Positions 38,596 to 44,676 of a stretch of 64,000 bases of DNA are shown one piece after another (position 1 is the stretch's first letter; every line of letters begins with the position of its first letter). Under the pieces are notes generated by a model, which was given only the letters and a program-made list of their open reading frames with translations, made no database searches and was not told the DNA's origin. This DNA is from an uncultured bacterium (GTDB lineage Bacteria > RBG-13-61-14 > DATKZS01), in the NCBI GenBank assembly GCA_964650485.1, contig CAZYTX010000003.1:57114-121113 (forward strand), in the 5' to 3' direction. Made by a program: the position numbers and the translations under genes.

Positions 38596-41500
38596 GTGTA
38601 TCTTTTTTGCTTGGACAGACGAGTGCAAGGGGCGTGCGGGGGCGGGGCTTTGAACACGGGACACAAACATCAAATCTCTTCACCCCGGGCGTGGTATGTC
38701 ATATTCATCCTCTGGGCCTTCCTGCTCTCGGGTTGCGGCCCTCCAGGGGATTACCCCTCCGGTTCCGCTCGCGAGGATTCAGACCAGCATCAAGCGCCCA
38801 GCCAGACGGGTCTTATACCAAGGCCTACCGAGGAGGGCGGCCCGGAATATATTCCGGGACTGCGCCCCCTGGCGGAAGAGCCTGTTCCCGCTTCCTGGGA
38901 CTGGCGGGAATATAATGCCGTCTCTTCGGTCAAGGACCAGGGGAGCACCATGAGCTGCTGGGCTCATGCCTCGCTGGCCAGCCTGGAATCACTGGTCATG
39001 GTTAACGGCGGAGACGAGTACGACCTGTCCGAGTACAACCTCATTGCCTGCAACGTGTATGACCTGGGCTGCTACAAGGGAGGAGACGATTTCAGGGCGG
39101 CGGTTCATCTGCTGGGCACGGGGGCAGCCGCTGAATCGTGCGACCCTCTGTCCCAATGCGATAGAGAGTCCGATGAACAATGCAACCCCGAGTGTGCCGT
39201 CGTCCTCTCCGCAACGGGATGGAGGTTCGTGGCCAACGATGTGGAACAGATAAAGAACGCGGTATACAATACAGGACCGGTTTATACAACACTGTATCAT
39301 GGAGAGACCGCCTTCCAGAACCTGGGACCGGACGAGGTATACTACAGCACGGTTGACCACAAGGTGACCCACGCCGTCACCATTGTGGGCTACGACGACG
39401 ACAAGCCCCATGCCGGGGGCCAGGGCGCCTGGCTGATAAAGAACTCGAGTGGAGAGGGGTGGGCGGACGCGGGGTTCGGATGGGTGGCATACGGCACCGC
39501 ACGCATAGGGTGGAACACTTCCGTATTTGTTGACTGCCAGTTGCCGGACCCGGAGGAGGACTACTATTTTTTTGACGAGTACGGGGGCCACAGCCAGACC
39601 GGGGACTCAAACTACGGCTGGGAGTGGGGCATGGTCAGGTTTACGCCGGCCGCGCATGGTCTGCTTGAGTATGTGGATTTCTGGACCGTCCTTCCGGGCG
39701 TCCAGTACAAGATACGCGTGTATGGCTCGTTCGACGGGTCCTCGCCCACCGAGCTTTTATCCAGCAAGGACGGGGTCACTGACAGGAAGGGGTACTACTC
39801 CATTCCCCTGGACACCACCCCGGTGATGGTTGCGGGCCGGGACGTGTACGTGGCGGTGGGTTTTAAATATGGCGGTCAGCAACCCATACCTTACGACGAC
39901 TCAAGCCCGCGGGAGCCGGACCGGAGCTATCTTTCCCCGGACGGGTCGAACTACTCCCTCATCCAGGGGGACATCGCCTATCGTATCCGGGTGGTGCACC
40001 GGGACACCGACGGGGACGGCATGGCAGACTTCTGGGAGAACACCTACGGGTGCCTGATGCCGAACACCGTGGACAATGAAGGAGACTGCGACTCCGACGG
40101 GCTCCTGAACGGCGACGAGTATTTATATTACCTTGACCCGGAAGACCCGGACATTGACGGGGACGGCATTGTTGACGGGTACGAGGTTAACCTCTACGGC
40201 ACAGACCCCACATCGCCGGACTCGGACTCGGACGGGCTGGGCGACTACCTCGAGGCAGTGGACGTCAGTTGTCTGGACCCCAACAGCGCGGACACGGACG
40301 GGGAAGGGCTGTGCGACGGCGGCACCTCTGTTTACGACGGGAGCACACTGCTTTGCGAGGCCGGCGAGGACATGGACCGGGACGGCGAGGTGGACCCGGG
40401 CGAGACCGACCCCTGCCTGGCTGACACGGACGATGACTTCCTGGACGATAAAAGTGAGACCCAGATATACTCCACCGATCCCCTGGACCCGGACACCGAC
40501 TCCGACGGGGTCCTCGACGGCATAGAAGCATCCTTCCTCACAGACCCCCTGAACCCGGACACCGACGGCGACGGCCTGTGCGATGGAAACACTTCCGTAT
40601 ATGACGGCAGCACCCAGCTCTGCTTTGCGGGCGAGGACTGGAACAATAACGGGATATTCGAGCCGGGGCTGGGCGAGACCGACCCCTGCAACCCGGACAC
40701 GGACGGGGACTCGCTCACCGATGCGGAGGAGAGGCTCACCTACGGCACCGACCCCAACCTTGTGGACACCGATTATGACGGGATCGAAGACCCCCAGGAA
40801 GTGGGATACTGCACCGACCCCTGTAATGCCGACACCGACGGCGACGGGCTGTGCGACGGCGGCACATCCGTCTACGACGGGGCCACCCTGCTTTGCGAGG
40901 CCGGCGAGGACATGGACCGGGACGGCGCGGTGGACCCGGACGAGACCGACCCCTGCGACCCGGACACGGACAACGACAACCTGGACGACGGCGACGAGGC
41001 CGGCTGGTGCACGCACAACCTGGACCCGGACACCGACGGCGACGGGCTGTGCGACGGGGACACCGCGGTGTATGACGGCGCCACCCTGGTGTGCATGGCC
41101 GGCGAGGACATGGACCGGGACGGCGCCACGCTGGGGGACAACGAGACCGACCCCTGCGCGCGCGACACTGACGGAGACGCGGTGGACGACTACACGGAGT
41201 ACACCGGGGGCTCCCATCCCCTGGACCCCAGGATAACCCCGCATTACCTCAAAGCCGCTGCCGAAACCAGGATCAGCAGCCATGCCGGAGAATCCACGGC
41301 CCCCACTCTCGCCTGGGGAGAACCCCACTTCGGGCTGGCATGGGTGGATGACCGGGACGGGAACACCGAGCTCTACTTCAACCGCGTCTCCCCCGGGGGG
41401 ACCCTCGCCGGCGAGGCGGTGCGCGTGACCCACGACCCCTCAGAATCAGCCGCACCCTCGCTCGTCCACTCGGCAGGCGGGTTCGCGCTCGCATGGCACG

Positions 41501-44500: not shown

Positions 44501-44676
44501 CCGGGGAGATGGCGCCCGGCCCTTTGCCCGACTCGGAGGGAAGGGCCAGGCTGGTTGTAAAACCCTCGGCCTGCGGGACCCTGAAGGTGGCGGCTTACTG
44601 CGACGAGCACCTGGACTGGGGCTGGGGCAGCTTCTCCCTGCCCGGGCTGGTGGAGATCACCGTGCCCTGCCAGTGA
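38596..44676 (+). CDS. Giant (2026 aa) acidic multidomain cell-surface lipoprotein: papain-like cysteine peptidase, TSP3-like Ca-binding repeats, 7-repeat beta-propeller, dockerin-like motif and PD40/TolB-like repeats
   Basis: Lipobox LLSGCG after a hydrophobic h-region; an alternative TTG start at 38650 gives a classical lipoprotein signal. C1-peptidase motifs QGSTMSCWAHASLASLE (Cys), HAVTIVGYDDD (His) and WLIKNSSGEGWADAGFGWVAYG (Asn/Trp). About six copies of DTDGDGLCDG..SVYDG.TLLC.AGEDMDRDG...ETDPC..DTD.D (roughly 55 aa). Seven copies of PSLAW.G..FG.AW.D.RDGN.EVYF... (roughly 51 aa). DISGDGIVGPDDISTLQSIYI is dockerin-like. The C-terminus has four PVSELN...SPSISADGL.LYF..R....DIW.A.R PD40-like repeats. 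Confidence 0.8.
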   Translation: MYLFCLDRRVQGACGGGALNTGHKHQISSPRAWYVIFILWAFLLSGCGPPGDYPSGSAREDSDQHQAPSQTGLIPRPTEEGGPEYIPGLRPLAEEPVPASWDWREYNAVSSVKDQGSTMSCWAHASLASLESLVMVNGGDEYDLSEYNLIACNVYDLGCYKGGDDFRAAVHLLGTGAAAESCDPLSQCDRESDEQCNPECAVVLSATGWRFVANDVEQIKNAVYNTGPVYTTLYHGETAFQNLGPDEVYYSTVDHKVTHAVTIVGYDDDKPHAGGQGAWLIKNSSGEGWADAGFGWVAYGTARIGWNTSVFVDCQLPDPEEDYYFFDEYGGHSQTGDSNYGWEWGMVRFTPAAHGLLEYVDFWTVLPGVQYKIRVYGSFDGSSPTELLSSKDGVTDRKGYYSIPLDTTPVMVAGRDVYVAVGFKYGGQQPIPYDDSSPREPDRSYLSPDGSNYSLIQGDIAYRIRVVHRDTDGDGMADFWENTYGCLMPNTVDNEGDCDSDGLLNGDEYLYYLDPEDPDIDGDGIVDGYEVNLYGTDPTSPDSDSDGLGDYLEAVDVSCLDPNSADTDGEGLCDGGTSVYDGSTLLCEAGEDMDRDGEVDPGETDPCLADTDDDFLDDKSETQIYSTDPLDPDTDSDGVLDGIEASFLTDPLNPDTDGDGLCDGNTSVYDGSTQLCFAGEDWNNNGIFEPGLGETDPCNPDTDGDSLTDAEERLTYGTDPNLVDTDYDGIEDPQEVGYCTDPCNADTDGDGLCDGGTSVYDGATLLCEAGEDMDRDGAVDPDETDPCDPDTDNDNLDDGDEAGWCTHNLDPDTDGDGLCDGDTAVYDGATLVCMAGEDMDRDGATLGDNETDPCARDTDGDAVDDYTEYTGGSHPLDPRITPHYLKAAAETRISSHAGESTAPTLAWGEPHFGLAWVDDRDGNTELYFNRVSPGGTLAGEAVRVTHDPSESAAPSLVHSAGGFALAWHDLRHGDYQVYFNRLTNGGTVAGPGLRVTGPDGASSCPSLAWSGSEYAVSWQDDRDGNYEVYLQRISTGDTLLGAAVRVTQDGAGSERPSIGWARDQYGIVWTDRRDANPEVYHNAVSGGGTVLGADTRISEDPGESQRPGLSWTGAAFGVAWEDLRPEGRGVYFALLSEGAAAAGPELLVSHGSTHSSSPSLSWTGARFGVSWSDARDGNTEIYYAEVTPGSPVVWQQRITFDPAASRRPSIAWTGAAFGIAWEDRRDGNGEVYFALLEYDADGDGALAAEEELFGADPEYWDTDRDFMPDGWEMQYAYCGVDPLTGDSHENPDGDGKNNIEEYLIGIDPCVIDWSTSDGDHDGLYYTLEDEWCTSPFDPDTDGDGLCDGDTSVYDGSTLLCAAGEDMDASGSRQAGETDPCDPDSDGDGLTDGDEVLVYGTDPLSVDTDLDGLSDSMEAAYCTDPLLSDSDGDLVIDGTSAGEDSNNNGIFEPELGETDPCDPDSDDDGLSDGDELYTQGTDPLDRDSDDDMMPDGYETNHGLDPLDPGDGDPEVLDPVTDPDGDGNANVHEFINQSSPSVADAHTCTSSLHGCFFGQGNSFFHIDPQDLSIAQDCYVGVCTHIRETYPGNCDTFDISGDGIVGPDDISTLQSIYIDSAFLISGAPARMTMLSPGMTANANVGETVSIEVRIEDDPAKNNGSATPRSGSAAIFELVSGQGHILGGEAPLPAGRTLIALSPVNSSSHESTFVVSRDEKEIVLASNRSDASGGFNLFHSRRSSRSASFGVPEPLSVLNSDSHDSMPALTGDRLEVFLSRKMKSGDWDLYRATRPDTGSDFTAPAPVSELNSGGYEGSPSITADGLVLYYAIKDEVKSYQIWRAERPDTSSPFADPAPVSELNTDYRDDLPAISAEGKRVLFISDRPGQNGLWNIWFAQRSSISDPFSAPVELPLVNTDDYELNAWESQDGLRLYLATYAYDPDGDIDIFTVTRPSTQVPFWVSQGPGRYEVTGEMAPGPLPDSEGRARLVVKPSACGTLKVAAYCDEHLDWGWGSFSLPGLVEITVPCQ
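40285..41200 (+). repeat. Intragenic tandem DNA repeats (about 165-190 bp, 4 copies, up to about 90% identity) encoding TSP3-like Ca-binding units; second block of 2 copies at about 42600-43020
   Basis: Nearly identical strings GACACCGACGGCGACGGGCTGTGCGACGG...GCCGGCGAGGACATGGACCGGGACGGCG at about 40296, 40561, 40834, 41029, 42606 and 42880. Confidence 0.7.
41245..42320 (+). repeat. Intragenic array of seven degenerate repeats of about 153 bp encoding the propeller blades
   Basis: Protein-level periodicity of about 51 aa with conserved W-x-D-x-R-D-G-N-x-E-V-Y; DNA identity is lower than in the TSP3 blocks. Confidence 0.55.

Follow-up and report, generated by a model that had tools for sequence, protein, structure and literature searches.

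Within a 64,000-nt stretch of contig CAZYTX010000003.1 from an uncultured bacterium (hereafter the window), the forward strand carries an uninterrupted open reading frame (ORF) at 38596–44676, whose 2,026 codons, counted from the first GTG (ORF list and translation), encode a signal peptide with a lipobox, a papain-family peptidase with an adjoining lectin-like domain, two Asp-rich thrombospondin-type-3 (TSP3) arrays, two beta-propellers and a dockerin-like module. A preliminary description had proposed an acidic lipoprotein with a C1-type Cys/His/Asn triad, calcium-type TSP3 arrays, a seven-blade propeller of 51-amino-acid (aa) repeats and C-terminal PD40 repeats, and each of these parts was recovered by the profile searches, alignments and structure predictions given below. 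The description is thus right for the most part, and goes too far on three points: how alike the repeats are, the orphan status of the neighboring gene and the propeller that could not be assigned. Taking the parts together, we favor, at somewhat better than even confidence, reading the product as an exported multidomain C1A cysteine endopeptidase, lipid-anchored and structurally of the Cwp84 type.

Residues are numbered throughout from the first GTG (38596), not from TTG 38650, although the latter is the likely start among the in-frame alternatives (38611, 38623, 38650) because database protein P0001, which is 2,008 aa long and 100% identical, begins MNTGHKH at that codon; the probable coding sequence is thus that of a 2,008-aa lipoprotein (38650–44676, +). 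The frame is native in codon usage and unbroken across 6 kb: GC content at third codon positions (GC3) averages 0.82 over the gene and runs from 0.63 to 0.89 by segment, against 0.67–0.84 in neighboring genes, so that nothing suggests a foreign origin or an ORF spliced from separate pieces. The protein is strongly acidic (13.1% Asp, 1.1% Lys, net charge −283) and carries 46 Cys. Since neighboring proteins have ordinary isoelectric points (pI 5.8–9.8), the acidity belongs to this protein rather than to the proteome and is concentrated in the TSP3 arrays, and we therefore rejected a halophile explanation.

Searching 5.8 billion proteins, we recovered the query itself and one close relative sharing the lipoprotein head and TSP3 array, P0002, which falls in the same 90%-identity cluster as HUT54476.1 (‘C1 family peptidase [bacterium]’, 1,330 aa, an uncharacterized metagenomic protein); among the GTDB representatives (one genome per species) no relative of the head was found. 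P0002 is 50% identical to the query over aa 72–760 and colinear with its first 770 aa, and it likewise has a lipobox (LVLGC) followed by the head and a TSP3 array, with a dockerin-like module and a beta-sandwich towards its C-terminus, whereas it lacks both propellers, carries a MopE-type Cys-rich motif instead and sits in a different gene neighborhood.

The lipoprotein signal peptide (38650–38736, +), read from the translation, combines a basic n-region (K24, R31), the hydrophobic stretch WYVIFILWAFLL and a lipobox (L44-S45-G46-C47), all three of which are retained whichever of the four starts is used. The pattern [LVI][ASTVI][GAS]C is satisfied at WYVIFILWAFL-LSGC, as a pattern match only, with the predicted lipidation residue Cys47 encoded at 38734–38736 and Gly at the +2 position. 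A regular-expression scan of 29 proteins with C1 heads found a lipobox after a hydrophobic stretch in two of them, the query and P0002 only. We infer from these features a bacterial lipoprotein lipidated at Cys47. Between this anchor and the protease lies a Pro/Glu/Gly-rich segment of 49 residues (38737–38883, +), of which aa 48–93 (residues 1–46 of the head model described below) have a predicted local distance difference test score (pLDDT) under 50 and are modeled as disordered; no Inhibitor_I29 propeptide was matched by Pfam in the protein. Judged from the head model and Pfam, this segment would be either a flexible tether or a short loop propeptide in the style of Cwp84.

The papain-family C1A cysteine peptidase domain (38884–39513, +) is recognized both by Pfam (Peptidase_C1, PF00112; aa 97–306, E 3.5e-31, 109 bits against a cutoff of 20.7, profile positions 1–212 of 220) and by alignment to PDB entries, 162 of whose sequences match it at E ≤ 1e-3. 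Gln115, Cys121, His259 and Asn283 align with the oxyanion Gln and the catalytic Cys, His and Asn of papain-family PDB chains (motifs QGxCGSCW, H and NSW in procerain, a cathepsin L-like protein and ananain), and across 19 related heads the Gln, Cys and His are invariant and the Asn nearly so. The misalignment of the catalytic Cys/His with C1 peptidases that the preliminary description had named as refuting its proposal is therefore not observed. With the catalytic set intact, the head is predicted to be an active endopeptidase.

Directly C-terminal to the peptidase, a Cwp84-type lectin-like beta-sandwich (39565–39999, +) matches Lectin_like (PF18560; aa 324–454, E 6.8e-8, 33.3 bits against a cutoff of 27), and its strands extend to about aa 467 in an AlphaFold2 model of aa 48–480, where it packs against the protease. 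The model has a well-predicted core (mean pLDDT 77.8), low confidence being confined to the initial 46 residues, a single loop and the tail. Comparing the head model by Foldseek, the top matches were Cwp84 itself (4ci7_A/4d59_A; E 3e-26, TMq 0.72, TMt 0.69–0.76, 417–421 columns), spanning both domains, whereas cathepsins matched the protease half only (about E 1e-15, TMq 0.45), a difference of about ten orders of magnitude in E. This two-domain superposition, together with the PF18560 match, identifies the modeled head as a Cwp84-type two-domain module.

Beyond the head, the tail opens with the first of two Asp-rich bacterial TSP3 arrays (aa 469–878; 40000–41229, +), in which TSP3_bac (PF18884) matches 7 stretches (E 2.5e-8), 23.7% of residues are Asp, and 18 Cys include those of four Cys-bearing composite units. 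The second array (aa 1246–1530; 42331–43185, +) has 4 TSP3_bac stretches (E 1.9e-12), 22.8% Asp and 8 Cys, and comprises a Cys-bearing unit besides one lacking the insert described below; over the whole protein TSP3_bac scores E 2.7e-10, and nearly all of the 23 DxDx[DN]G motifs in the ORF fall inside the two arrays. The composite units take the form DTDGDGLCDG..SVYDGSTLLC.AGEDMDRDG....ETDPC, with five units carrying three Cys each. The preliminary description had counted about six units of roughly 55 aa, which does not hold as stated: five carry the Cys insert, while a sixth (aa 1428–1460) lacks its 11 residues, as do all corresponding units of P0002 (residues 560–700). The insert itself (..TSVYDGSTLLC.; 5 of 6 units, at 40291–41160 and 42610–42735) adds a Cys pair and has apparently been propagated from unit to unit inside the gene.

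At the DNA level the repeats are more diverged than had been thought. Compared in ungapped register, the Cys-bearing units are 44–74% identical in protein and 55–77% in DNA, the best repeat pair reaches 85% over 173 nt, no exact repeat in the ORF exceeds 40 nt, and Tandem Repeats Finder reported nothing in the gene beyond one 40-nt array. The earlier claim of near-identical 165–190 bp repeats is thus contradicted, which weakens the case for recombinational length variation and assembly collapse, built as it was on that near-identity. Among NCBIfam models, the repeats give a partial match to CglD (NF033765; 7 stretches, E 2.2e-53, 181 bits against a cutoff of 400) and a slight one to MtsD confined to the repeats (NF047639; 23 bits against 800), and on these scores we rejected membership in either equivalog. 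By analogy with characterized calcium-binding arrays, the two TSP3 regions would become a stiff acidic stalk on binding Ca2+.

Set between the arrays is a seven-blade beta-propeller (aa 879–1245; 41230–42330, +) built from seven 51-aa repeats, with the blade consensus ..R.T.....S..PS..W.GS..G..W.D.RDGN.EIYF.R....G. and with the Trp of a W-x-[DE]-x-R motif recurring at 916, 967, 1018, 1069, 1120, 1171 and 1221 (51-aa spacing). The blades are 31–51% identical to one another in protein and 48–63% in DNA, and structure prediction from an alignment of 48 homologues closes them into a seven-blade propeller with high confidence (mean pLDDT 95.4, predicted template modeling score 0.93). The preliminary description had been unable to assign the repeat to a known family; a Pfam scan of the propeller at E ≤ 10 indeed gave nothing meaningful and no model, but the repeat is far from isolated, with 82 homologous proteins (35 at E ≤ 1e-50), most of them ‘hypothetical proteins’ of 360–630 aa. 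These relatives are often joined to a MopE-type PF11617 motif, or to BNR_2 (PF13088) and a type IX secretion system (T9SS) tail, and their named sources include Deltaproteobacteria, Myxococcaceae and Polyangiales bins. We assign the propeller, from sequence comparison, to a widespread uncharacterized family.

Among known structures, the C-terminal propeller of CylK (7ron/7roo) stands apart as the best structural match to the predicted seven-blade propeller, as a fold match only (7% identity), with no sequence-level match even when a 49-sequence profile was used. CylK’s active site is formed between an N-terminal Ca-binding beta-roll and the propeller (Arg105/Tyr473; PMC8916777). The query lacks the beta-roll domain that carries Arg105 and instead has TSP3 arrays flanking its propeller; a CylK-type alkylating enzyme was therefore rejected, as the propeller fold alone matches and alkylation cannot be inferred from it. 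As a structural handle on the widespread 51-aa-repeat family, the CylK match is in our view the most interesting by-product of the analysis.

With the arrays and the propeller described, the view that the ORF arose by chimeric assembly or repeat collapse, the refutation scenario named in the preliminary description, can be weighed, and we consider it very improbable. It would draw on the occurrence of the full architecture in a single assembly, on junctions after aa 770 that lack a colinear homologue and on the presence of 150–173-nt repeats; these repeats are, however, 55–85% identical, with their longest exact match (40 nt) below usual assembly k-mers, and the 6-kb frame has no breaks and a GC3 within the neighbors’ range. 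Colinearity with P0002 over both the initial 770 aa and the dockerin-like region, and the closing of the seven blades into a complete propeller, likewise argue for a genuine gene.

Past the second array lies a Cys-rich module (aa 1544–1625; 43225–43470, +) that is dockerin-like with marginal support, from P0002 homology and a two-sequence profile. The preliminary description had seen a single dockerin-like EF-hand motif here, which is weakly supported: one canonical EF-hand-like loop is present, the second (DISGDGIVGPDDISTLQSIY), with the first loop degenerate, while Pfam Dockerin_1 (PF00404) gave no match to the segment even at E ≤ 10. The region is homologous to the C-terminal region of P0002 (BLASTP E 3e-7), in which two clear EF-hand-like loops occur (DGDGYVLGSDQAILQAEVL and DADGYILGSDLVTIRGFVL), and a profile of query and P0002 against PDB returned dockerins first, ahead of calmodulins, at a marginal E of 0.0036–0.1 (single-sequence dockerin matches of the query module stood at E 1.9–2.7). 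A dockerin identity is plausible from these comparisons but falls short of significance. Were the protein a cellulosome-like component, this module would plug into a cohesin-bearing surface scaffold, an idea for which one could cite the dockerins heading the PDB list and the true Dockerin_1 domains carried by some TSP3/PD40 relatives (P0024, P0043, P0233). Given that the profile E-values are marginal (0.004–0.1) with no Dockerin_1 match, that only one of the two Ca loops is intact, that no cohesin turned up (none having been searched for) and that the protein already has its own lipid anchor, we regard such a role as hardly probable. The same BLASTP alignment extends over a segment of about 90 aa (43471–43740, +) common to P0002, with no family match, that is probably a beta-sandwich.

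The second propeller, of PD40/TolB type (aa 1716–1955; 43741–44460, +), is recognized by Pfam PD40 and by its homologues, and comprises at least 5 repeats of about 50 aa (F.xPxPv.eLNs....P.is.DG..l.f.S.R). PD40 (PF07676) matches at E 1.9e-8 in the whole protein and at 1.7e-12 on the segment (2 stretches), and 138 homologues were found, mostly PD40 proteins of 280–370 aa. PF26549, found among the precomputed Pfam matches of P0001 and co-occurring elsewhere with PD40/DPPIV_N-type families, is probably a generic TolB-like propeller model. The C-terminal 71 aa (44461–44673, +) contain three Cys and have no family match in the Pfam scan. The notion of a PD40 propeller inserted into the beta-sandwich shared with P0002 is unsupported, the last 68 aa being unlike the P0002 C-terminus.

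The PD40 domain bears on a further alternative, namely that the product is a periplasm-facing outer-membrane lipoprotein for envelope maintenance or protein turnover, with the PD40 region working like the propellers of TolB and PorE. The default topology of lipoproteins in diderms is periplasmic, the query gives partial matches to the TolB, PorE and CHU_0125 models, and several PD40 homologues are fused to OmpA_C (P0289, P0307, P0313, P0319). Those partial matches nevertheless stay far below their equivalog cutoffs (TolB TIGR02800, 38 against 343 bits; PorE, 30 against 600; CHU_0125, 49 against 620), and although the repeat motif and Pfam match of aa 1716–1955 are common to the PorE and CHU_0125 families, the query lacks the TolB N-terminal domain as well as the OmpA_C and TPR parts. 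A 2,000-residue stalk with 23 Ca motifs and 46 Cys would also hardly fit the periplasm, and TSP3_bac, Cwp84-type heads, dockerins and T9SS-tailed propeller homologues are typically extracellular. We judge this periplasmic role improbable.

Returning to the lipid-anchored Cwp84-type endopeptidase, its working could be pictured as follows. A GT9 heptosyltransferase gene in the window implies lipopolysaccharide and hence a diderm cell, so the host is probably diderm. The protein would be exported by Sec, diacylglyceryl-modified at Cys47 and cleaved by signal peptidase II, as its lipobox predicts, and would then be tethered to a membrane of this cell, most likely the outer one given the heptosyltransferase gene and the +2 Gly. 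From there some 45 disordered residues, serving as tether or propeptide, would lead directly into the protease, against which the lectin-like sandwich would pack, presumably lining the substrate groove as in Cwp84, and the membrane-proximal endopeptidase would cleave proteins recruited to the envelope. By analogy with COMP/thrombospondin and CglD, binding of Ca2+ would turn the two Asp-rich, disulfide-braced TSP3 arrays into a stiff acidic stalk displaying the CylK-like or lectin-like propeller, the degenerate dockerin-like module and the PD40 propeller. These displayed modules may in turn bind a ligand or partner, keeping either the cell or the enzyme attached to a polymeric substrate or a partner protein. 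Surface exposure is suggested here by analogy, and ‘Ca-dependent surface protease or adhesin’, the function first put forward for this gene, is the most reasonable reading of its domains.

The balance between enzyme and adhesin within that phrase could also be struck the other way, with the protein serving mainly as an adhesin or matrix-binding stalk whose protease acts only in self-processing or in shedding of the distal 1,500 residues. The layout fits such a role, with the protease adjoining the membrane anchor, the propellers and dockerin-like module lying distally and about 75% of the protein being non-catalytic, as do the NCBIfam matches to the adhesion-type lipoproteins CglD and MtsD, the former a Ca-dependent adhesin. 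What turns us from it is that the catalytic set and Cwp84-type groove are conserved between query and P0002 (about 55–60% identity) more than the tail is, which points to selection on the enzyme itself, and that Cwp84 acts in trans on SlpA (PMC4089489). We hold a primarily adhesive role to be possible and clearly the less likely of the two.

Several observations weigh against an active, surface-exposed endopeptidase. At the position after the catalytic Asn-Ser, where at least 90% of the 19 heads have Trp, the query has Ser285 (NSSG; codon 39448–39450), whereas P0002 keeps the Trp (NSWG); this position, which we take to be that of papain Trp177, is one where a change to Ser may lower activity. 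The head model gives no placement for aa 48–93, the possible propeptide of a zymogen. Searching PDB by sequence with the TSP3 array found no solved relative, and PD40 propellers also occur in the periplasm-facing TolB, PorE and CHU_0125, so that surface exposure is not assured. Finally, the full architecture occurs in one assembly only.

A more far-reaching version of the endopeptidase reading would make the protein a functional analogue of Cwp84 or of eukaryotic membrane-tethered sheddases, its membrane-proximal protease positioned by a Ca2+-rigidified stalk, with the CylK-like seven-blade propeller, its blades putatively Ca-bridged and bearing PLL-lectin-like W.D..GN motifs, as a new glycan-binding module selecting glycoprotein or S-layer substrates. 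We regard this as a doubtful speculation. If true, it would provide a first function for the widespread, so far unnamed propeller family and its hundreds of ‘hypothetical’ proteins.

Upstream and divergent lies a 500-aa gene (36958–38460, −), whose product has no Pfam or NCBIfam match and no signal peptide. The preliminary description had paired this gene with the protease gene and called it an orphan; its divergent position stands, but an exhaustive HMMER search returned 444 cluster representatives at E ≤ 1e-3 (259 at ≤ 1e-10, 75 at ≤ 1e-30), most of the strongest of them full-length, making its product a conserved hypothetical protein by sequence. No C1 peptidase occurs near its homologues P0321, P0323 and P0324 in four loci (L084–L087), and the 500-aa gene is absent at the three P0002 loci. 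With the gene not an orphan and the pairing absent in the loci of either relative, we rejected a functional pairing. Among loci of its homologues, one adjoins lnt, one has the gene directly after a GT9 heptosyltransferase gene, and in two it follows gpsA immediately, the start and stop codons overlapping, and lies two genes from lgt; anecdotally, these associations may hint at a role in envelope biogenesis. The divergent intergenic region (38461–38595) contains a GC-rich hairpin at 38475–38490 (GCAGGCCGGGGCCTGC), followed by the AT-rich TTTTATTTAATAGCCGCATTCTTATATAATAATT with a TATAAT-like element. As no gene ends in this region, the hairpin is not an obvious terminator, and the region is possibly a promoter/operator for the two divergent genes.

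Downstream, a terminator-like hairpin with a T-rich tail (44752–44778, +; consensus scan, pattern match only) begins 76 nt past the stop codon of the protease gene, suggesting that the gene is monocistronic and transcribed alone. The mechanical TTG start of the next ORF (44707–45894, +), a pyridoxal-phosphate (PLP) enzyme of the D-cysteine desulfhydrase/ACC deaminase group, precedes the hairpin stem (44752–44768), but its Pfam match starts no earlier than residue 48, which places the true start probably further downstream, and co-transcription of the two genes is unlikely. Beyond it, a 413-aa ORF (45928–47169, +) with a His/Arg/Gly/Val-rich translation is an antisense shadow of the real gene at 45967–47133 (−), which encodes a bifunctional fructose-1,6-bisphosphate aldolase/phosphatase (NCBIfam equivalog NF041126, cutoff 520 bits; 524 bits at E 2e-157), an enzyme typical of archaea and deep-branching bacteria.

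The remaining neighbors are housekeeping genes, for a Na+/H+ exchanger, a class-III aminotransferase, the D-cysteine-desulfhydrase-group PLP enzyme, UbiA and QPRT, and elsewhere in the window lie genes for PNPase, LeuRS, KARI, the GT9 heptosyltransferase, two sulfatases and GH88; Rfam gave no matches over the whole window, and a tRNA scan of it found none. The class-III aminotransferase (35633–36913, −), read as HemL-like, is 54–61% identical to the best of 483 relatives, which in a one-genome-per-species set (loci L004–L083) come from Gammaproteobacteria, Betaproteobacteria, Nitrospirota and Acidobacteria; identity at this level indicates that the host has no close sequenced representative in that scan. 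The sulfatases, with SGSH_C domains, and the GH88 unsaturated glucuronyl hydrolase (16164–17570, 18329–19726 and 51074–52576) suggest that the host breaks down sulfated polysaccharides, which could be the ecological setting of a surface protease or adhesin.

Placing the protein among known systems, its architecture, presented in the preliminary description as unusual, is so in the combination of its tail and is otherwise less exceptional, since heads of the Cwp84 type are common and carry varied tails. About 25 large proteins of bacteria and archaea (Methanolobus, Methanosphaera, Methanobrevibacter and many metagenomic ones) join PF00112 and PF18560 to beta-helix, PKD, Ig-like, NHL/SGL or FG-GAP modules, some with TSP3 repeats in their variable tails; fusions of TSP3_bac arrays to S8, M4, C14 or C1 proteases are also found. 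Such protease-TSP3 fusions, together with C1-lectin heads bearing propeller tails, mark a recurrent design. Unique domain combinations are frequent among giant surface proteins of uncultured bacteria, and we regard the protein as an unusual combination of ordinary parts rather than a new kind of system, with no new mechanism indicated. The value of the present case is modest. Multidomain prokaryotic C1A peptidases are numerous and, to our knowledge, almost unstudied, Cwp84 being the sole example with a solved structure. A 2023 survey of the papain family noted numerous prokaryotic C1A peptidases of complex multidomain organization and did not analyze them further (PMC10380794).

Of characterized proteins with a calcium-motif array, CglD of Myxococcus xanthus, an outer-membrane lipoprotein exposed at the surface, owes its Ca2+ dependence to a DxDxDG array (bioRxiv 10.1101/2023.10.19.562135). 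The query resembles it in its N-terminal lipoprotein anchor and long TSP3/COMP-type array of Ca motifs, CglD being the best NCBIfam match, and differs in that the VWA/integrin-like domain belongs to CglD only, whereas protease and propellers belong to the query only.

For the head, the closest known system is Cwp84, a surface protease of Clostridioides difficile that matures the S-layer protein, from which the PF18560 Lectin_like family was defined and whose loop-type propeptide, of about 60 residues and without an I29 fold, occupies the same position as the segment in the query (PMC4089489). The two share an order of signal peptide, short non-I29 segment, cathepsin-L-like C1A domain, lectin-like sandwich and anchoring or adhesive tail, and at about 19–20% sequence identity their heads both have the catalytic Cys/His/Asn and oxyanion Gln. 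They differ in anchoring, by C-terminal CWB2 repeats in Cwp84 and by N-terminal lipid in the query, in the query tail of TSP3 arrays and two propellers, and in the Ser replacing Trp after the catalytic Asn. Pfam found no CWB2 repeats in the query protein, and no S-layer gene was identified among the neighboring genes scanned in the window; these absences and the lipobox anchoring led us to reject a Cwp84 orthologue engaged in S-layer maturation. What the query and P0002 together add to the Cwp84 comparison is the head as an N-terminally lipid-anchored enzyme of a probable diderm, joined to TSP3 arrays.

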